The notes under the pieces are model-generated. The model was not told the origin of the DNA. It did no database searches and saw nothing but the letters and a program-made list of their open reading frames with translations. Source: a virus (Duplodnaviria > Caudoviricetes). From it: 64,000 nucleotides of DNA. The stretch spans positions 12,964 to 76,963 of the IMG/VR virus record IMGVR_UViG_3300037424_001593. One strand, written 5' to 3'. Within the stretch, counting starts at the first letter, position 1. The number at the start of each line of letters is the position of its first letter. Both the position numbers and the translations under genes were made by a program. Below are positions 5,051 to 64,000 of the stretch, in pieces.

Positions 5051-5889
5051 CCGCGCCCCCGCTTCGTCCAGCGCTTGAACACCCAGACGCCGAAGATCCC
5101 AGCAACCACGGTCGATCCGAGGATAAGCGGCACGCGATACGGCGAAGGCCGATGCACGGGCGCTGTCACGTCGATCGCTTCGCCCTGAATCACATCCTGA
5201 GGCGCCGCGGTGCTCGAGCCCGGCACCGTGACCGGATACCCGTTCGGCACCTGACTCGCGGCTTGGAGCGCGAGGAAGAACGCGTTGCTCACGCTCGTAC
5301 CTGTCGCCGTAGGCGCAGGACCCGTCGTGGTCGTCGTAGTTGTGGCTGTTGCGACGCTGTTTGTGCGCGAGCTCGTGTCTTCGACGCCCACGCTCTGCGC
5401 GTAGGAGTCGATGTTCCAGAGCGCTTCGCCGTACGTGGTGCCTTGCGCAGCGGCGAGAACACGCTGCCGCGCGCGCGCAGCCCAATCTGTGGGTGCGCCC
5501 GCGCTCACGCAGTTGACCTGTCCGCGCAGCGCCGTGATGTTGTTCGCGACCTTCGCAGGCGTGTCGTTCATCGCTGCGTTTGCGACCGTGAGCAGATCCT
5601 TACGACAACTGCTCGCGCTCGGCGTCGTGCCTGAGAGCCAGAGCATGTAGAACGCGGCGTTGGCGGACTTGCGCCCCCACACACCGTCTGCGCTGAGCAG
5701 CGGCGGCGGCACAGGCCCGTTCAACTGGATCACACGTGCAACGAAATCCGGAAGCGCGTTGTTGTACGCGCCCTGAAACGACGCAATGAGCGCCTTCTGC
5801 ACATGCGCAGGCGCACGATCACCCATGCCCAGCACGGCTGCCCATGCGGACTCAGTGAGCGTGAACACCTGCGATTGCGAGAACGACAT
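5047..5889 (-). CDS. C-terminally anchored virion protein with possible peptidoglycan-binding motif
   Basis: LSADGVWGRKSANA resembles the L..DG..G..T..A PG-binding signature; Thr-rich linker; TM plus KRWTKRGRG. Confidence 0.6.
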   Translation of the reverse strand: MSFSQSQVFTLTESAWAAVLGMGDRAPAHVQKALIASFQGAYNNALPDFVARVIQLNGPVPPPLLSADGVWGRKSANAAFYMLWLSGTTPSASSCRKDLLTVANAAMNDTPAKVANNITALRGQVNCVSAGAPTDWAARARQRVLAAAQGTTYGEALWNIDSYAQSVGVEDTSSRTNSVATATTTTTTTGPAPTATGTSVSNAFFLALQAASQVPNGYPVTVPGSSTAAPQDVIQGEAIDVTAPVHRPSPYRVPLILGSTVVAGIFGVWVFKRWTKRGRG

Positions 5890-6062
5890 CAGCTCTTCTT
5901 ACGGCGCTTCTTGGGGGGCTTCGAGACCGACGTAATGCGGCCCTTGCTGTCGCGGCACACCTTACGGCGCACCGTGCCGATCTTCTGGACCTTGCACTTG
6001 ACCGTCTTGCCGACGCGGGCCTTACGCTTGGTCGCCTTCTTGCGCTTCTTCTTGGTAGCCAT
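5889..6062 (-). CDS. 57-aa very basic protein (not in ORF track)
   Basis: MATKKKRKKATKRKARVGKTVKCKVQKIGTVRRKVCRDSKGRITSVSKPPKKRRKKS; stop overlaps start of next gene. Confidence 0.65.
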   Translation of the reverse strand: MATKKKRKKATKRKARVGKTVKCKVQKIGTVRRKVCRDSKGRITSVSKPPKKRRKKS

Positions 6063-6092
6063 GGTGTCCTTACATTTCCTTGACCCCGAGGG

Positions 6093-6452
6093 TCACTTGG
6101 GGCAGACGGGGCGACCCTTGTGGATGCGGCAGCCCTTCTTGAGAGCCTTCGCAAACGAGACGCGCTTCATGCCCTTCGGCACGCTGCGTGTCGGAAGACC
6201 TGCACCGGTTGCACCGGCCTCGGCTGCCTTTTTCGAGCAGACGTAGACGTTCTTCTCGCCCTTGACGCGCTTGCAGCCCTTGCGGAGCTTGCTGCCGACC
6301 TTCGCGATCGACTTGTGCACGCAGACCTGACCCTTGCGGGGCTTGCACTTCGCTTCGCGCTCGAGACGCTTGCTGGTCTGAATCCGCGCGTAGTACGGAT
6401 CGACGTCGATGTCGCCCATCCCTCGCCTGCGTCGCCGTGTTCGCTTTGCCAT
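6093..6452 (-). CDS. Basic Cys-containing putative core protein
   Basis: MAKRTRRRRRGMGD; internal repeat KLRKGCK/KALKKGCR; late motif upstream. Confidence 0.65.
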   Translation of the reverse strand: MAKRTRRRRRGMGDIDVDPYYARIQTSKRLEREAKCKPRKGQVCVHKSIAKVGSKLRKGCKRVKGEKNVYVCSKKAAEAGATGAGLPTRSVPKGMKRVSFAKALKKGCRIHKGRPVCPK

Positions 6453-6489
6453 CGTGAGCACCTGTGGTCGGTGTTGAACCGTTCTTTTT

Positions 6490-6500
6490 TCTTATACCCC
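6490..6500 (-). promoter_or_regulatory. Putative late promoter GGGGTATAAGA
   Basis: Exact motif copy 37 nt upstream of ATG 6452. Confidence 0.7.
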
Positions 6501-6507
6501 GGCCGGG

Positions 6508-8721
6508 TCAGCGTGTTCGCTTGGCGAACAGCGCAAGGCCGCCCGCGAGCAGCAGACCGCCGCCGATGAACATCCAGGGGATCGAGCTCGATCCAGGCAC
6601 CACACTCGGCATGGTCGCCGCCTGCGCGATCGCGTTCTGCAGATCGAGCGGCGTCGGCATCGGCGTAGGCGTGCTACCGCTCGCCGTAGGCATCGACGAG
6701 CTCGTTGAAGTCGTCGCAGCATCCCCGCTCGAGGTGATGATGGGCAGCGAGCTCGGGCTCGACGCAAGTGCATTCTGATTGAGCGCCACCGCCGTGATCA
6801 CAGGATTCGCAACGACACTGCCATCCGCCGCAGGCGCGAGATTCGGCTGCACCGTCACCGTAGTAACGGCTTGCTGCCCACCCATCGCGAGCTCACCTGT
6901 GATGTGTGAGAGCGCCGTGATGAGCGCGGCTGGAAGCGAGCCTCCGCGGTCGAACGTCGCACACGGCACGTCGCTCAGCGTGCGCAGCACGAGCGGCTGC
7001 ATCACATCCGCTTTGTTGCCTGCCTTCTTCTTGCGGCGCATGGCAACAAGCGACGTGATGCCTGTTGCAAGCGTCGTTGCCGCAAGCGTGACACCGAGTG
7101 CGATCGGGTTACTGCTCGCGACCGCAGTCACTGCGCCGCCCACCTGCAGAATCGTCTGCTGTGCAGCCTGCGCTTTCGCATCTACCTGCGCCTGAGCAGC
7201 ACCGACCTGATACTCTTTCGCCTCGTCGATACTGAGGTCGATCAAACCGCGTTCGGCCCAGTATGTGACGTGATTGCTGATGTACCAGAGCGTCGCGTTG
7301 ATCGTGTGGTCCGCGAGACTCGTCTCGAGGATGGAACGAATCCAGCCCTCTGCCATACGGGCTGCGCCGTAGATGGACGTGTACGTGTACCACTCGTAGT
7401 CGTCCTCGCGGACAACGCGCGCTTCCCAACGACGCCACACGAACGTCGTATCTTCGGGATTACTGTGCAGGCACTGTTGATACCAAAAATGCCACGCACC
7501 CGAACGCAAATCGTTTTTGATTTGCGTCGTTGTACGGTCGGTCGGCATCAAGTTCTGTGGGCGAACACGATCAGACTCATTGCCCAGCATGTCGTTTGCG
7601 GTCCGCGAATCGTATTGCGGCGCGAAGTCACCCGTGAGCCAGCCCGTCGGCCCATCTGCGTCGTAGAAACCCATCCACAGAGGGCCCACAAAGAGCTTCG
7701 TGACCGTGCGGTCGATGTGCTTGAGCCACGGATCCTTGGCGACTTCCTTGTCACCGTAGTCCACGGGTTGCGGCGCGCCGCGGAGCTCGTTGAGCACGCT
7801 CTGCATGAGCGGCGGGAGCGCGCGATCCGGCAGCAGCACACCCGGCTTGCCGTCCGCATCCGTCATCGTCGTCGTCGGGTTCGCGGGCAGCAAAAACTGC
7901 GGCTGCACATTCGTCGCGAAGTACGCGAGCGAGACCCAGCTATAGACGATCGTGAACCAGTCGGCGGTGAGCCGCGATGCGTACTCGCGCTCGACGCTGC
8001 CCATCGGCATCGAGAGCCCGCTGTACGCTGGCTTGACGACGAGAAGTTGCGCGAGCGCTTGCTGAGCTCGAGCGTAGATGTCCGCGCGGATGCCGACACG
8101 CGCCGTGTTCTCTGCACTGCACGGAAGAAGCGCCGACGGATACTGGATCATCGCCCAGGTCTGGATGTCGGCCTTGAACTGCTGTGCCCCGTCAGGGAAA
8201 AGCTGAGGCTTGACGAGCGTCGCGACGGTGTCGTTGAAGCTCGCCGTGTACGCATCGACGACACCGCGCGCCTGCACCGTCTGCGCGTCGTACGTGATCT
8301 TCGTCACGTCGCGCGTTTCGGTGGGCGCCACGATCGTCGTCATGAGCTGGTTCGCGTTCGAGATGTTCTGTTGCGCCTGTGCGCTGAACTTCGCCGCGAG
8401 ATCTGCATCGCCGCTCTTCTGCGCACTCGCAGCAAACGCTGCCGCCGCAGCAGCAATCTTCACCTGCTCTTCAGCCTTCTGCTGAATCAACGCTGCTGTA
8501 GGCGAGCCTGTTTGCGCAGTCGCTACGACCTGCGCACGCGGCGCGCTGTACGTGTTCATCGCCGTACCCGCAGCAATCGCCGCTTGCTGTTGTGCAATCG
8601 CTTCTTGCCGCGCCGCTTCTGCAGTCTTCTTCGCTGCCTCTTTCTTGCGCCGATCGCGCGGAAGACCGAGACCCGCACCAAGCCCGTTCGCACCCTTTGG
8701 TGGAACGATGCGCGCTTGCAC
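6508..8721 (-). CDS. Large membrane-anchored virion protein (about 737 aa; probable GTG start at 8721)
   Basis: N-terminal ANGLGAGLG, Ala/Gln helical region, internal hydrophobic hairpin, C-terminal TM plus KRTR; ORF-track extension to 9240 overlaps another gene. Confidence 0.65.
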   Translation of the reverse strand: MQARIVPPKGANGLGAGLGLPRDRRKKEAAKKTAEAARQEAIAQQQAAIAAGTAMNTYSAPRAQVVATAQTGSPTAALIQQKAEEQVKIAAAAAAFAASAQKSGDADLAAKFSAQAQQNISNANQLMTTIVAPTETRDVTKITYDAQTVQARGVVDAYTASFNDTVATLVKPQLFPDGAQQFKADIQTWAMIQYPSALLPCSAENTARVGIRADIYARAQQALAQLLVVKPAYSGLSMPMGSVEREYASRLTADWFTIVYSWVSLAYFATNVQPQFLLPANPTTTMTDADGKPGVLLPDRALPPLMQSVLNELRGAPQPVDYGDKEVAKDPWLKHIDRTVTKLFVGPLWMGFYDADGPTGWLTGDFAPQYDSRTANDMLGNESDRVRPQNLMPTDRTTTQIKNDLRSGAWHFWYQQCLHSNPEDTTFVWRRWEARVVREDDYEWYTYTSIYGAARMAEGWIRSILETSLADHTINATLWYISNHVTYWAERGLIDLSIDEAKEYQVGAAQAQVDAKAQAAQQTILQVGGAVTAVASSNPIALGVTLAATTLATGITSLVAMRRKKKAGNKADVMQPLVLRTLSDVPCATFDRGGSLPAALITALSHITGELAMGGQQAVTTVTVQPNLAPAADGSVVANPVITAVALNQNALASSPSSLPIITSSGDAATTSTSSSMPTASGSTPTPMPTPLDLQNAIAQAATMPSVVPGSSSIPWMFIGGGLLLAGGLALFAKRTR

Positions 8722-10657: not shown

Positions 10658-10778
10658 GGCGAGAAAATGCCTTGCGGCCGGGGCTGCGCCCCGGTTACCG
10701 TTCGGGTGTTCGATCTTCGGATCGTGCACACCCAACTGGAACAGGGCGAGGAGGGCAAACCCACCCCGCCTTTTCCTT

Positions 10779-19332: not shown

Positions 19333-19374
19333 TTGACGGCATAGACTCGCAGCATGTATAGCTGCGAGTCTATG
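19333..19374 (+). promoter_or_regulatory. Sigma70-like promoter embedded in a perfect 14-bp inverted repeat
   Basis: TTGACG(19333)-N18-TATAGC(19357); CATAGACTCGCAGC/GCTGCGAGTCTATG. Confidence 0.65.
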
Positions 19375-21141
19375 TCTCGGTGGGTACGTACCGGACGCGG
19401 CTGGTGGCGTCTACAGCTCGATCGCTGCGAAGCGAAAGTCCTCGAGCCCCTCGCCGAAGTTCCGGGTATCACGGTTGCTGCACAGCGCGAGGTGCAGAAG
19501 ATCGCCCAGGGTGTGTCCGTCGTGGCGCACCGTACGGCGTTCTTCACCGAAGCGATGCAGACGTTCATCGAGGCGACGGGCATCGAGCCTGATACGCTCA
19601 ACGACGATGCTGTGCTCGAGGAGCTCTGGACGCCCAAACGCCCGCTCCGGACATACCAGGAGGAGGGCGCACGCTGGCTCGTCGCTGGGCGCGGGGGCAT
19701 CCTCGGCGACGCGATGGGCATCGGGAAGAGCTCCCAGGCCGTCGTCGCCGCCAAGACGCTCCAGGAGCACGCACACGGCGCGCCGGTGCTCATCGTAGGG
19801 CCGCAGTTCACACGGGATGTGTGGCGCCGGGAGCTCATCGCGCTCGGGGCGATGACCGAAGACGAAAGCGACGACGGTCGAACGTGGTTCGTATGCAAAG
19901 GTCGAAACCCGGAGCCCGGAACAGACGATGCGATGTTCGGTGCGCGTTTCGTCTTCTGTCACTACGACGTGCTCGAGGCATGGCGGCACATCCTGAGTCG
20001 CCCGCTCCGCATGCAGAAGTTCTGTTGCGCCATCGTAGACGAGCTCCACTGGATCCGAAATCCGCTCAGCAAACGGGGTGCTGCGACGCGCGCCGTAGTG
20101 ACTTTGATACCTCAGCGTATCGGGCTTACCGGCACCATCTTCGTGAACAAGGTCGATGACCTCTGGGCGCTTTTCACAACCATCTGCGGCGAGGGCTCTT
20201 TCGGCACACATTTCGCGTTCAAGAGTCGGTACACGCAGTATGACCGCGGAAAATACGGCTTCGTATCAAAAGGGACACGGTGCGAAGCAGAGCTTCAGGC
20301 GCGGCTCGAGGCCTGCTATTTACGCCGTACACTTGCTGACGTCGGCACGCAAATCCCGCCCTTGACGCGCACGCTCTGGACGTTTGACCCGGGCAACGCG
20401 CCCATGGAGGCCGAGCTCAAGAAGTACGTGGGCAAGGATCGCCGCGTCGCGCTCCAACACCTGCGCGAGCACTTCCGGCGCGGCGCGTTCGGCACGGAGA
20501 CCTTGAAGGTTCTGCACGCATGGCGACACTGGACGTCGCGACAGAAGCTCGAGCTCGTCGCAGAACGCGTCGCCTCGTCTTTTTCTGAGGGTGAGAGCGT
20601 CATCGTGTTCGCGTGGCAGCGCGCGACCGTAGAGCGCCTCGCCGAGCTCATCAGCAAGGCCATCGCGCGCACGGGCGAGGTCAAAAAGAACCAGCTCGAG
20701 ACGCTCAAGCGGATCTTCATCGTGCATGGCGGCTACTCACAGGACGCGCGCGATCAGACCGTGCAGCAGTTTCAGCGCTGCGAAGGGCCCGCGATACTCT
20801 GCTCGACGAACGAGGCGCTCAAGGAGGGCGTCACGCTCACAAAGGCGCGTCTTGGCATCCTCGTTGACCTCGAGTGGATCCCTGCAAGCATGCTGCAGCT
20901 CGAGGCGCGCTGGCATCGCCTCGGGCAGACGCTCCCGTGCGAGTCCATCTGGTGCGTCTGCACGGACAGCGCAGACGAAGTCATCACCGAGCACCTCATG
21001 GATAAAGCGCTCGCAGAAGCGGAAGCACTCAACAATACGACTGCCCAAGATGCATTTGCTCAAGTGGGTCTTGACATGACGACAGAAACGCGAGAAGAAA
21101 CTCTAGCGCAAAGGCTACTCGATAAGTGGGGTGGGCTGTGA
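19372..21141 (+). CDS. SNF2-family helicase/ATPase
   Basis: GDAMGIGKS, IVDELH, GLTGT, EARWHRLGQ. Confidence 0.85.
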   Translation: MSRWVRTGRGWWRLQLDRCEAKVLEPLAEVPGITVAAQREVQKIAQGVSVVAHRTAFFTEAMQTFIEATGIEPDTLNDDAVLEELWTPKRPLRTYQEEGARWLVAGRGGILGDAMGIGKSSQAVVAAKTLQEHAHGAPVLIVGPQFTRDVWRRELIALGAMTEDESDDGRTWFVCKGRNPEPGTDDAMFGARFVFCHYDVLEAWRHILSRPLRMQKFCCAIVDELHWIRNPLSKRGAATRAVVTLIPQRIGLTGTIFVNKVDDLWALFTTICGEGSFGTHFAFKSRYTQYDRGKYGFVSKGTRCEAELQARLEACYLRRTLADVGTQIPPLTRTLWTFDPGNAPMEAELKKYVGKDRRVALQHLREHFRRGAFGTETLKVLHAWRHWTSRQKLELVAERVASSFSEGESVIVFAWQRATVERLAELISKAIARTGEVKKNQLETLKRIFIVHGGYSQDARDQTVQQFQRCEGPAILCSTNEALKEGVTLTKARLGILVDLEWIPASMLQLEARWHRLGQTLPCESIWCVCTDSADEVITEHLMDKALAEAEALNNTTAQDAFAQVGLDMTTETREETLAQRLLDKWGGL

Positions 21142-28210: not shown

Positions 28211-28397
28211 CGTGCGTTCGAGTCTCACGATGATGCACGCAGACCCGGCACGTTTCTTCGTGGGCACGACGAAGCGTGTTCTCCCCCACTGCAGCGCATC
28301 TTCGTGAGACTCGAGAGCACGGCTGTAAGCCCAAAATCTTGGTTGCACCCAAGACTTTGCGGTGGGCCGCCCGTTGTCGCGTGCAAGCGCTGCGGGC
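28211..28397 (+). ncRNA. Candidate structured RNA upstream of DNA polymerase
   Basis: 26-bp stem 28211-28236/28296-28321, inner hairpin, two further hairpins with complementary loops TTGCAC/GTGCAA. Confidence 0.6.
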
Positions 28398-51912: not shown

Positions 51913-51914
51913 AG

Positions 51915-52091
51915 GAGGTAGCTACCTCTCTTCTTATCCCACGAGGGGTAGCTACCTCCCCCGTTGCTACCAGGTAGCTACTCCAGGGCGGCAGGGTAGC
52001 TACCTAATATGTAGGTCTTTATCCCACATATGTATTACCTATAATAGGTCATACCTTTTCTTCTGTCAGTAAAGAATATATTTACTGACGG
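51915..52091. promoter_or_regulatory. Palindrome-rich control region between divergent late (left) and early-type (right) genes
   Basis: GGTAGCTACC x3 plus 2 degenerate, late motif at 51932, ACCTAT-A-ATAGGT, GTCAGTAAA-N7-TTTACTGAC. Confidence 0.7.
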
Positions 52092-57051: not shown

Positions 57052-57942
57052 ATGGAGCTCAACCCGGTCCAGCTCAAGTTTCGCGACACGCTCATCAAGG
57101 CGGGTTATCAGCCGAGCACGGCGCTCAGCTACGTGAAGGCGCTCGATCGCGCGTCGCGGGGTCTCGCCGAGAGCCCGATGGTGACGCCCGCCGCCTGCAA
57201 GCTCTGGCTTGCGTGGGCCGAGCATCCCCTCGAGCACAACTACACGCTCGCAGCGACGAACGTGCTCGCGGCGAACGACGAGGGACTCGACGGCATCAAG
57301 CGCCGGAAGAAGGGCGCGCGGAAGAACGTCGCGCGCTCCATCCCCGACGGGCAGTGGATCGAGCTCGTGGACGCGTTCGCGCGCGGCGTCGAGGTTGAGG
57401 ACGCCGTCCTCTACGTGCTCGCGACGACGGGCCTGCGCATCAGCGACGTGCTCGGGGTGACCCGCGAAGCGCTCGTGCGCGGCAAGCGAAGCGGCGTCGT
57501 CGAGGTCTACGTGAAGGGTGGCAAGCTGCGCCGTCTTCCGTGGGCGGGCGCAGAGGAGGCGTGGAGCGCGCTTCTGGGTCGCCTCGACGCGTCTGCCACC
57601 GTTGCCGACGCGGTGACGGGCCTTCCGGAGAGCATCGCGGACGCGAACCACGCGGCCTATCAGCGCGTGCGCCGCAGGCTCCAGAGCTACAACGTCGCCG
57701 TCGCATCGAACGAGATCCGGCACGGGCAGCTCGGAGGGCTCGGAGCCGCTGCGCCCCTCGAGCGGATGTACCCGCATCGCCTTCGCCGTACGGTCGCCGT
57801 ACAAGCCCTGCGCGCGACCAACGACCTGATGGCGGTCAAGGAACTCCTCGGACACGAGGCGCTCTCGACGACTTCGACGTATCTTGATGAGGCCCGCCCG
57901 GACGTCGTGGCGGCGCTGCAGCGCAAGATTCGTGAAAAGTAA
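57052..57942 (+). CDS. Tyrosine recombinase (Xer-like size, no arm-binding domain seen)
   Basis: TGLRISD (R), VKGGK (K), HRLR (HxxR), LLGH (H), STYL (Y). Confidence 0.9.
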   Translation: MELNPVQLKFRDTLIKAGYQPSTALSYVKALDRASRGLAESPMVTPAACKLWLAWAEHPLEHNYTLAATNVLAANDEGLDGIKRRKKGARKNVARSIPDGQWIELVDAFARGVEVEDAVLYVLATTGLRISDVLGVTREALVRGKRSGVVEVYVKGGKLRRLPWAGAEEAWSALLGRLDASATVADAVTGLPESIADANHAAYQRVRRRLQSYNVAVASNEIRHGQLGGLGAAAPLERMYPHRLRRTVAVQALRATNDLMAVKELLGHEALSTTSTYLDEARPDVVAALQRKIREK

Positions 57943-58008
57943 ACGCGAAGATAAAAGTCGTGAACAAACAAGCACGACGACACGTCTCACAAACAGGTGG
58001 GTAAGACA

Positions 58009-58527
58009 ATGAAGAACAAGGCACTCAGCATTTTCCTACTGCTCAGCCTCGGTGGCTGCGCGGACAACGTCATCACCGTCGTCCCGGACACGGACGCGGC
58101 CTGCGGAACAACCGAGGACGCAAGCATGGAGCCCGTGACGCAGTGGCGCTGTGTCGGCACGATCCGCAACAGCCAGGGCGACGTGACCGGCTACGTGGAT
58201 AACACGGTGCCCGAGTACACCACGGTGGACGGCTTGCAAACCGTGCAAGCTGTGGATCTCGAGCTCGAGATCTCCGGGTGCAAGCTCGCGTTCCCGGTCG
58301 ATGACCATCTCGTGCGCGCATCTGGCCGCTTCGACGCGGAAGCACCAACGTGGACCGTGCTCGACAGCGAGGACGCAGATTGCGGGGACTTTCTCGGGTC
58401 CTTCACGAACCGAAGCCCGCGCGTCTGGCGTCCAACGCCGCTCGTGGACTCGCGCCTCTTCCTCGTCGAGGACTTCCGCTTCTCGGGCAGCGAGGCCGAC
58501 ATCATCTGCGCCCCGATCGGGGGTTGA
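58009..58527 (+). CDS. Lipoprotein
   Basis: MKNKALSIFLLLSLGGC lipobox. Confidence 0.7.
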   Translation: MKNKALSIFLLLSLGGCADNVITVVPDTDAACGTTEDASMEPVTQWRCVGTIRNSQGDVTGYVDNTVPEYTTVDGLQTVQAVDLELEISGCKLAFPVDDHLVRASGRFDAEAPTWTVLDSEDADCGDFLGSFTNRSPRVWRPTPLVDSRLFLVEDFRFSGSEADIICAPIGG

Positions 58528-58553
58528 CGCCGGCCTGCGGCCTTGCGTAGGAT
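58524..58553 (+). promoter_or_regulatory. Sigma70-like promoter feeding the long non-coding region
   Basis: TTGACG-N18-TAGGAT; spacer contains GGCCTGCGGCC as at 47187. Confidence 0.6.
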
Positions 58554-58555
58554 AG

Positions 58556-59068
58556 AGGTGTTCGGTCGTCTCACTCGCGATTGTAACTCCTCCCACCTGC
58601 AAGCGGCGGCACCTGACTTCGGTTACGTGACGCCCTTGCTCTTTCTGGAGGTCGCTCGTCCTCGAGAAAGTCCCCACGAACAACCGGACCCTAAGGACGT
58701 CGCTACGCGTCATGTCGGGTCGGGTCTAGTAGCGTAGATGTTCGTTGGGGCTTTCGCGGTGACGAGCCGTGTAGCCCGGTAGGTGTACCATGTAACCCCG
58801 TCGGCCCCCTGATGTACGTGAATGTTTAGATTTGTGCGTCGAGCCTGAAGAAGGCATTTGAGAACCTCCTCTACGAGGTGCGTCATGAAGAACTGAACTG
58901 CGGGTCGTGGCTCCCGGACCTATACGGGGCAACGTTGAAGCCTTGACGCATGCTGCGCGACGTTTTCTTTCCCTGAGGAATGAGCCTCGGAGAGGGGAGC
59001 CCACCAGGCGCCGCGCAGCAGCCGTCTCGACTTCAAACCCCAAGGCCTACCGGCCTACCCACAACACC
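58556..59068 (+). ncRNA. Candidate large (about 500 nt) structured ncRNA or leader
   Basis: Multiple nested long-range helices; no credible ORF. Confidence 0.6.
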
Positions 59069-59078
59069 CGAGGATACG

Positions 59079-59536
59079 ATGCACAGCACGAGGTACACCT
59101 TCGACGAAATCGCGATGAAGGGTCGCAGGGTTTGGAAGGACCCGACGACTGGCAAGCGCCGCACGCAGGTCGTGAAGTTCTTCCAAACCGTGAACCCGTT
59201 CAACAAGAACGCTGCGGGGTTCCCGAAGACGCGCGCCGAGATCTACAAGGAGCTCGGCGCAGAGTTTCACGCTTGGGTCGCTGCGGCGCCCGAAGGTGAG
59301 AAGCGCGAGCAGTGGGCATGACCCCGCAACAAGGCAGATTCTACGCCGAGCTCCACGAGCACGTCGCAGCGTGTCGGCGCGCAGCCGATCGCAACGATGC
59401 CGAGCTCACGAGCAACCTTCGCGTTGTAGCCTTCGAGGCTGCGCTTCGTGGCATCGCGCGAGGGCGCAAGGACGCGCGCACGATCGCGAAGATCGTCATC
59501 GACCTCGCGAGCATCGCGACACCGGGGTGGCCGTGA
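59079..59536 (+). CDS. Two small hypothetical ORFs (59079..59321, 59318..59536)
   Basis: RBS GAGGATACGATG; ATGA overlap. Confidence 0.6.
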
Positions 59537-63100: not shown

Positions 63101-64000
63101 AGCGCATTTTGCGGGGACGCTAATGGGCAACGTATCTCTCGGGCGGCACAGCGTGCTGCTGCGGCTCGACGAAATCGAGCTACACGCCCACGAAGAGCCA
63201 GGCTCACGTACAGTCGTCGAGCTCTGCCAAGCAGCGCGCGATCTCGTGCAGGAAGTCACGGCGCTGCAGGATCGCGTGGACGCGCTCGAGCTTGCGCGCG
63301 AAGAGCTCGAAGAGACGTTGTCTCGCACGTGCGAGATGCCGGACGATGACTGTCAGTGCGCGGGCTGTCTCGCGCTTGCGGAATACGCCGCGAAGGAGAA
63401 CGCGAAGTCATGACCGGACGCGCAACACTCGCCGCATGCACGGTGACGAGGAACGCGCCTGCAACATCATCCGCGCGTGGGGTGTACCAGTCGATTGACA
63501 CAGCCGCGCCTACGGCGCTAGGCTTGGAGCTCGTTGGTTCTTCGTGGATCATCGAGCCCAACCCGCAAGGCGCCGAGGGACCGCAAGGTACCCCGGCCTT
63601 TGCCTTTTCAAGGGCTCGAACCGCGACAAGGAGAAACCGACATGACCGACACGCGCAGACGCATGCAGCACAACGACGAGCCGATCAACCCGGACATGGG
63701 TGAAGGTCGCCACCAAGATTCGCTTCGTCGCCTTCGCGCGCGCATCGCCGATGGCCTTGAGCTCCGCATGGGCGACGACGACACGATCGGCAACAGGTCT
63801 ACGTCGTGCACGTGGGGCTTGTGCTCGATCGATCCTGAACAGTGGCCCGAGCACGACGACCACATCTGGCCCGAAGACCACAGGAAGCGTTTGCGCATTG
63901 CGCCGCGCACCGCGGACGATCAAACGTGTCCACACGACCAACGCGCTACAGGCCAACATTTCGGGTGCTTCTACCGCTGTGCGATGTTCCAGGCGAAGAC
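60183..64000 (+). CDS. Run of small hypothetical phage ORFs (including DUF551-like 62241..62582), last one truncated
   Basis: Continuous coupled overlaps; MTWKSMDSAPTDGTRVL. Confidence 0.55.

Follow-up and report, generated by a model that had tools for sequence, protein, structure and literature searches.

A Folded Gene-Free Gap Downstream of a Phage Integrase Gene: A Possible Long 5′ Leader of an Early Operon

The Locus and Its Genes

The stretch of viral DNA considered here (the window; 64,000 nucleotides) corresponds to bases 12964–76963 of the complete 76,963-bp IMG/VR virus record IMGVR_UViG_3300037424_001593, and positions given below are those of the window unless the contig is named. 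The record carries a 127-bp terminal overlap that probably stems from circular assembly. Our subject is a gene-free gap of 551 bases (58528–59078) lying between a lipoprotein-like gene and a gene encoding a protein of 80 amino acids (the 80-aa gene). An earlier reading of the letters, made without database searches (the sequence-only reading), had noticed at this place an extensively paired non-coding RNA with a promoter of its own, situated next to a recombinase gene, and had left two options, i.e., an unclassified large phage RNA or a long regulatory leader.

Two genes precede the gap on the plus strand. The first encodes a tyrosine recombinase/integrase (57052–57942), assigned by Pfam PF00589 at 4.3e-12 and by PHROG integrase families. 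The second is the lipoprotein-like gene (57997–58527), which displays a lipobox, MKNKALSIFLLLSLGGC, when read from the ATG at 58010 and for which no Pfam or PHROG family was matched. Its TGA stop codon falls within the −35 hexamer of the promoter described below. On the other side of the gap, the 80-aa gene (59079–59321, plus strand) belongs to phrog_35236, a family of unknown function (PHROG match 3.3e-7), and opens the downstream operon. Since two homologs with 71% (P0002) and 54% identity begin at the same methionine and the PHROG alignment agrees, the start of this gene is fixed at ATG 59079. Overlapping ATGA (59318) and GTGA (59533) junctions couple it to the next two genes, so that the operon runs from the 80-aa gene through a 72-aa gene to a DnaJ-domain gene, the domain match of the latter being weak and under Pfam's own cut-off. 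The phrog_35236 family is met in metagenome contigs (L007–L029) of 26%–67% G+C, usually packed among small genes, and judged by these occurrences the 80-aa protein is a widespread small phage protein.

Relatives of the virus were recognized through two of its proteins. The capsid protein is common to four large viral contigs (G004, G006–G008) and a partial record (G005) at 37–59% identity, and relatives of the integrase with 35–42% identity occur in the same four records. When single proteins were scanned against viral contigs, neither the polymerase nor the products of the lipoprotein and 80-aa genes returned anything close, and the integrase yielded one partial match of 39 residues only.

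A Promoter of the Phage's Own Design

Between positions 57500 and 60000, the promoter scan called a single sigma-70-like site, where shuffled sequences lead one to expect 0.2. It lies on the plus strand at 58524–58553, has the layout TTGACG-N18-TAGGAT, and reads in full TTGACG-CC-GGCC-TGC-GGCC-TTGCG-TAGGAT, the spacer thus containing a palindrome, GGCC-TGC-GGCC, at 58532–58542. A TGC-centred spacer palindrome also marks promoters at window positions 10672(+), 11569(−), 33519(−), 43314(+), and 47209(−) and at contig position 2508(−), and promoters of this kind are found in the relatives G004 and G006 too. One of the copies in G004 has TTGACG, the CCTGCGGCC core, and TAGGAT in common with 58524–58553. 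In G006, the order of integrase, lipoprotein-like open reading frames (ORFs), and TGC-palindrome promoter is the same as at the locus studied here; the segment in question (L038; positions 5743–8100 of the 80.6-kb record IMGVR_UViG_3300037183_000082) comprises the integrase, small ORFs, two lipoprotein-like ORFs with signals ending in ...FLALLGC and ...VLLAAC, and the promoter. As the design recurs within the phage, in G004, and in G006, and as the local order in G006 is the same, the promoter is credible, and at least one relative conserves its position. The claim of the earlier reading that the region possesses its own sigma-70-like promoter is therefore borne out, both by the single match in 2.5 kb and by a design shared with the other promoters of the phage.

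A TGC-palindrome promoter also drives the transfer-messenger RNA (tmRNA) gene of the phage (contig 2005–2385, minus strand; L062), the product of which scores 102.5 bits against Rfam and specifies the tag peptide ANDNAEPILAQAA.

Non-Coding Nature and 3′ End of the Gap

The G+C content at third codon positions (GC3) amounts to 0.8–0.93 in the lipoprotein gene and to 0.83–0.93 in the 80-aa gene, with no sustained frame in between; the signal drops away at 58528 and resumes at 59079. Stop codons interrupt all six reading frames of the gap, and the six ORFs overlapping it matched no Pfam or PHROG family, bar one that extends the 80-aa gene upstream. Overall G+C content is 55–62% in the gap vs. 63–70% in the neighbours. 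The collapse of GC3, the stops in six frames, and the lack of family matches confirm that there is no credible ORF, as had been stated from the letters, and together with tblastx comparisons they rule out a hidden protein gene or pseudogene. The stretch 58873–58895 does contain a mini-ORF of three codons, ATG AAG AAC TGA (MKN), placed 5 nt past a GAGGT that is paired in the predicted fold. Its three residues are the same as the first three of the lipoprotein gene, a likeness that is probably due to chance.

At its 3′ end, the gap leads directly into translation signals. The sequence GAGGATACGATG at 59070–59081 consists of the Shine–Dalgarno (SD) element GAGGA, a 4-nt spacer, and the ATG at 59079, and the same ribosome-binding motif stands ahead of small genes at 52.3–55.2 kb. 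The sequence-only reading had correctly seen that these letters are present and match a motif of that array, which it took for the right arm of an array repeat; given that the start at ATG 59079 is fixed by homologs, the supposed arm is an SD element, a spacer, and a start codon. As a candidate conserved motif, GGCCTACC, which also precedes one start codon in G004, was rejected because it occurs at chance frequency and mostly within genes.

Predicted Fold

The elements of the fold were derived from the minimum-free-energy (MFE) structure and from pair probabilities. A weak promoter-proximal hairpin is predicted at 58560–58587 (plus strand) when the first 93 nt are folded locally (58560–58652; −36.6 kcal/mol, z −3.5). 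The full-length fold instead pairs this stretch with the ribosome-binding region. The resulting long-range helix between the first 25 nt and the SD/AUG segment has a probability of 0.64–0.94 and would hide the ribosome-binding site (RBS), reminiscent of the array hairpins that do so, but it is regarded as unsupported, the duplex being of chance-level strength.

The weak hairpin is followed by a terminator-like hairpin, here termed hairpin T (58599–58646, plus strand), with a stem at 58599–58639, a cUUCGg tetraloop at 58618–21, and the tail UCUUUCU at 58640–46. Its free energy is −21.7 kcal/mol (z −3.8) and its pair probabilities reach 0.98–1.0. Five of the seven tail residues are U and the stem bears three 1×1 mismatches; a simple scan for the terminator consensus did not call it. 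An imperfect palindrome of 30 bp (58641–58670; inverted repeat I5), with 14-nt arms complementary at 12 of 14 positions around a 2-nt centre, extends from the terminator tail into the 5′ arm of the next hairpin. It can also be read as 11-8-11 and could serve as a protein-binding DNA site or, in the RNA, offer a pairing in competition with hairpin A.

Hairpin A (58654–58767, plus strand) comprises about 26 stacked pairs, arranged in stacks of 7+3+9+7, with three 1×1 mismatches and a small branched tip. It is predicted at −61.3 kcal/mol with pair probabilities of 0.82–1.0, and its z-score is −5.1 on the plus and −5.0 on the minus strand. The 3′ domain that follows (58771–59058, plus strand) is closed by a 13-bp helix, 58771-84/59045-58 (inverted repeat I6), of probability 0.93–0.95, and encloses hairpins at 58789–58820, 58824–58898, and 58906–58934 as well as hairpin B. 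The latter (58935–59036, plus strand) has a long imperfect stem whose 9-bp core, 58951-59/59012-20, is perfectly paired and which ends in the tip CUGAGG/CCUCGG; its stacks count 6+1+4+9+3 pairs plus the tip, its energy is −49.4 kcal/mol (z −4.0 on the plus and −4.7 on the minus strand), and its pair probabilities range from 0.66 to 1.0. From the end of hairpins A and B up to the start codon, the terminator scan called no terminator-like site.

Four of the six helices proposed from the letters recur in this ensemble, namely 58654-60/58761-67, 58666-82/58739-55, 58683-91/58717-25, and 58951-59/59012-20 with its inner CUGAGG/CCUCGG, all at a probability of about 0.9–1.0. For the remaining pair, 58621-29/58789-97 and 58834-42/58943-51, the complementarity described does exist, but the ensemble probability is about 0, and imposing these helices carries a penalty of +6 and +10 kcal/mol, respectively.

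Folding Compared with Chance

Compared with dinucleotide shuffles, the gap as a whole folds with z-scores of −4.21 on the plus strand and −4.73 on the minus strand, in agreement with the expectation of the sequence-only reading that folding would exceed that of shuffled controls. For three coding windows of equal length, the z-scores were +0.04, −1.2, and −2.65. The ensemble of the gap is well defined, its diversity of 63.5 (genome median, 114) corresponding to what would be rank 4 of 86, and its centroid lying 6 kcal/mol from the MFE structure vs. 40–62 kcal/mol in three coding control windows. Because the opposite strand folds as well, thermodynamics alone cannot separate an RNA structure from inverted repeats in DNA. 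The middle part of the gap (58786–58900) beats its shuffles on the plus strand alone (z −2.4 vs. −0.6), and this signal points to an RNA of the plus strand, as do the promoter and, in hairpin T, the UUCG loop and the U-tract behind the stem. Energies of mirrored structures, tried as a means of choosing the strand, proved uninformative and were dropped.

When the 77-kb genome is folded locally in 118-nt windows, hairpin A is one of the strongest structures. Relative to G+C content, the 118-nt windows 51913–52030, 19333–19450, 1978–2095, and 38323–38440 fold as strongly or more so, and the strong-fold window at 28213 is the leader of the polymerase.

Searches for Relatives of the Gap

None of the 4227 Rfam families matched at its gathering threshold anywhere in the 64-kb window, and with E up to 10 the interval 58450–59150 returned a single match, to istR at 14 bits, where the gathering score is 45. 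The tmRNA of the phage, recovered at the score given above, served as the positive control. The covariance search that the sequence-only reading had proposed thus retrieved no family, GOLLD, ROOL, HEARO, OLE, riboswitches, and tmRNA-like RNAs included.

Homology searches with the gap sequence were equally negative. No homolog was found by blastn among 50,697 phage records, by nhmmer or blastn in five viral loci or in 23 metagenome loci encoding relatives of the 80-aa gene, by nhmmer and tblastx in four genomes of related viruses (complete or nearly so), or in three viral records sharing a promoter word, and no paralog is present in the phage's own genome. The 401 Gemmatimonadota genomes searched gave just matches of 20–37 nt and no homolog; ten of these short matches were inspected, and each lies within a long ORF of a different genome. 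One member of the set, G166, is flagged as unpublished, and none of the conclusions depends on it. Neither a candidate attB nor a repeated palindromic element was detected in the same 401 genomes.

A Possible Host Lineage

A scan based on the capsid protein led to a metagenome-assembled genome of the Gemmatimonadota, CP070815.1 (G009; L064–L068), a bacterial chromosome on which both the capsid genes and the integrase have relatives. It contains three capsid paralogs at 1.187–1.189 Mb, the best with 44% identity, and a strong integrase relative at 1.275 Mb beside an M23 peptidase gene; the phage, too, has an M23 peptidase gene. The integrase relative adjoins a truncated prkA gene; its C-terminal domain breaks off behind position 74, and the remainder is found nowhere in the assembly. 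No prophage borders or attachment junction could be defined around it. Taken together, the capsid and integrase relatives give a hint of the host lineage.

Likeness to Other Phage Elements and Known Systems

Promoters of the same design, with the TGC-centred palindrome, stand in front of short cassettes elsewhere in the phage genome (those at window 10672+, 11569−, 33519−, 43314+, and 47209− and at contig 2508−). These share with the start of the gap a layout of about 85 nt, in which a first hairpin is followed by a GC-rich hairpin with a U-rich tail, and the tail of hairpin T resembles their consensus in sequence. Several differences exist, however. The TTGGGATC box after the −10 hexamer and the GCAAUC loop of the cassettes are missing behind the promoter at 58524–58553, the palindrome arms measure 5–7 nt in the cassettes and 4 nt at the 58524 promoter, and about 430 nt of further structure precede the first gene here. 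A covariance model, R1, built from the six cassette copies scores them at 77–108 bits. With its filters off, it aligns only the 3′ half and tail of hairpin T (12.6 bits, E 8e-4 within 801 nt). Since the layout is the same and R1 recognizes the terminator tail alone, the start of the leader appears cassette-like in design and not a member of the cassette family by sequence. The model finds a further cassette copy at window 63489–63615 (plus strand; 34 bits, E 6e-8), with the promoter TTGACA-N18-TAGGCT and a spacer palindrome that is not TGC-centred.

RNase III cuts long imperfect hairpins in the early mRNA of bacteriophage T7 (R0.3–R1.3), in the lambda N leader, and in lambda sib. The sites of T7 and of the lambda N leader are likewise long and imperfectly paired, span roughly two helical turns or more, and occupy the same place, i.e., untranslated sequence among co-directional early genes, after a host-type promoter and just before an RBS. 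By prediction, hairpins A and B offer imperfect double strand of about 20 bp or more, as RNase III processing hairpins do. In contrast to the known sites, they are putative substrates; there is no sequence similarity, and a single T7 site is much shorter than the two large hairpins and multi-branched domain of the gap. Lambda sib/tI provides a second point of comparison. There, an RNase III hairpin downstream of int and beside attP mediates retroregulation of int, and the gap similarly places a terminator hairpin and RNase III-type hairpins downstream of an integrase gene, where read-through transcripts would contain them. It differs in that a lipoprotein gene and a promoter intervene and no attP was identified, and a dependence of integrase expression on the hairpins would be hypothetical. 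Finally, GOLLD, ROOL, and similar Rfam RNAs resemble the gap in being several hundred nucleotides long, free of ORFs, of multi-domain predicted fold, and set in phages, whereas the gap is devoid of an Rfam match, homologs, a conserved core, and a defined 3′ end.

A Long 5′ Leader as the Preferred Interpretation

We tentatively read the gap as a long, highly folded 5′ leader of the early operon and not as a free-standing RNA gene, an interpretation to which we would give slightly less than an even chance. It is based on the promoter pointing into the gap, on the lack of a terminator-like site after hairpins A and B, on a 3′ end formed by the SD element and AUG, and on the coupled genes that follow. 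The cassette-like layout behind the promoter, the plus-strand cues, the stability of hairpins A and B, the well-defined ensemble, and the gene order shared with G006 add to it. Seven spacers between early genes of this genome were re-folded in addition, and folded spacers turned out to be a recurring habit, which speaks for a leader. Of the two options left by the sequence-only reading, the long regulatory leader accordingly fits the anatomy, and the unclassified large phage RNA is without positive support, given that there is no Rfam match and no homolog in the collections searched, that the opposite strand folds equally, and that the gap ranks only within the top ~5% of the genome.

The promoter design, the lack of coding, the hairpins with their stability, and the RBS at the 3′ end are shown by the analysis, whereas transcription, termination or antitermination at hairpin T, and cutting by RNase III are inferred. 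In the proposed mechanism, the host-type promoter of the phage's own design would start transcription near 58560. The first ~85 nt would form the weak hairpin and then the stable terminator-like hairpin with its U-rich tail, matching the other cassettes. At hairpin T, a large share of transcription would probably halt or pause, except where a phage factor allows the polymerase to pass, in the manner of antitermination. Transcripts that continue, and those reading through from the integrase and lipoprotein genes, would contain hairpins A and B, which by analogy have the size and shape of RNase III substrates. These hairpins may act as processing sites or as stability barriers separating the downstream from the upstream message, and would thereby set the 5′ end and lifetime of the downstream message.

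Several observations weigh against this interpretation. As no homolog of the gap was found in any collection searched, no helix has support from covariation. In the relatives, the next long open frame begins within ~130–170 nt of the promoter (G004 and G006; within ~170 nt in G006), and homologs of the 80-aa gene elsewhere are without a long leader and mostly have other ORFs directly upstream (23 loci). Because the relatives' frames follow the promoter closely and the 80-aa homologs lack a leader, the extra ~430 nt are not a conserved requirement and are specific to this phage lineage as sampled. Model R1 does not report 58520–58650 at E up to 10, and the best duplex that the RBS region can form with the 528 nt before it does not surpass those formed with shuffled sequence or with other parts of the genome (p ~0.2). 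Moreover, the opposite strand of the gap folds equally well (z −4.73), and when energies are regressed on G+C for 510 windows of 526 nt from the genome, it takes rank 27 on the plus and rank 31 on the minus strand, i.e., a place in the top ~5% and ~1.5 standard deviations out. A shuffle z-score of −4 can hence equal a mere top 5% of the background of a GC-rich genome. The good shuffle z-scores combined with this modest rank show that the structure of the gap is real yet not unique in the genome, several stretches of which are predicted to fold as strongly or more so.

Competing Explanations

An unlikely alternative is that only a short terminated RNA of ~87 nt (58560–58646), similar to those proposed for the cassettes, is functional, and that the other 430 nt are functionless filler, either the remains of a deleted gene or inserted palindromic DNA. 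The cassette-like layout with the terminator-like hairpin T would fit, as would the fact that neither relatives nor the other settings of the 80-aa gene have the 430 nt, and the lack of detectable conservation. Filler would not, on the other hand, account for hairpins A and B, with z-scores of −5.1 and −4.0. Since these lie far beyond shuffles and hairpin A is among the genome's strongest local folds, decayed coding sequence is unlikely; no trace of protein similarity is found in any frame, either. The lack of extra copies in the phage and in the 401 genomes speaks against a mobile palindromic element, and the downstream operon would be left without any other promoter-like site in the scan.

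Somewhat less probable still is a function at the level of DNA, with the gap harbouring attP or another recombinase or repressor target and inverted repeats such as 58641–58670 serving as protein-binding sites. The gap lies loosely beside the integrase gene, as an attP would, beginning 585 nt past the integrase stop with one cargo-like lipoprotein gene between, and related viruses show apparently ORF-free gaps of 250–430 nt after their integrase genes, as judged by crude gene calls. Inverted repeats in DNA would also give the equal folding of both strands, the 11-8-11 reading of the 30-bp palindrome corresponds to the layout of simple tyrosine-recombinase sites, and both the integrase and the capsid genes have relatives on one Gemmatimonadota chromosome. 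However, the post-integrase gaps of the relatives share no sequence with this gap, in which no tRNA-like segment was found. No host match was found among the 401 Gemmatimonadota genomes, which gave only the 20–37-nt matches, the ten inspected lying inside ORFs. A pattern scan of 185,579 species genomes detected no relatives of the integrase. The promoter, the U-tract, and the UUCG loop, moreover, are strand-specific features of the RNA type.

We regard it as improbable that the gap encodes a free-standing, lineage-specific structured RNA of ~500 nt that is processed off before the 80-aa gene and has a job of its own, e.g., as a protein sponge, scaffold, or ribozyme. Such an RNA would be in keeping with the dedicated promoter, with the multi-domain fold, its high pair probabilities and well-defined ensemble, and with a gap that lacks an ORF and is lower in G+C (55–62% vs. 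63–70%) than its neighbours. Against it stand the absence of Rfam matches even at E up to 10, large phage-associated RNAs included, and the lack of homologs in any collection searched and hence of conservation or covariation. No signal marks a 3′ end, the sequence leading directly into the RBS; the additional 430 nt do not occur in relatives, and the fold, matched by that of the other strand, belongs to the top ~5% of the genome only. The variant in which an orphan RNA is cut from the operon transcript and acts independently, e.g., by binding a host or phage protein, in a little-known group of large tailless phages that maybe infect Gemmatimonadota, appears just as doubtful.

Implications

Taken by itself, a long 5′ leader of this kind would be an unconserved element, and its main value would lie in adding one more data point to a pattern of folded RNA. 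Should the leader reading be true, the phage repeatedly controls expression by RNA folded between genes, in the form of terminators close to promoters, of hairpins masking ribosome-binding sites, and of long hairpins for processing. Under the same condition, these elements would constitute a useful natural collection of RNA control parts from a group of viruses about which little is known.

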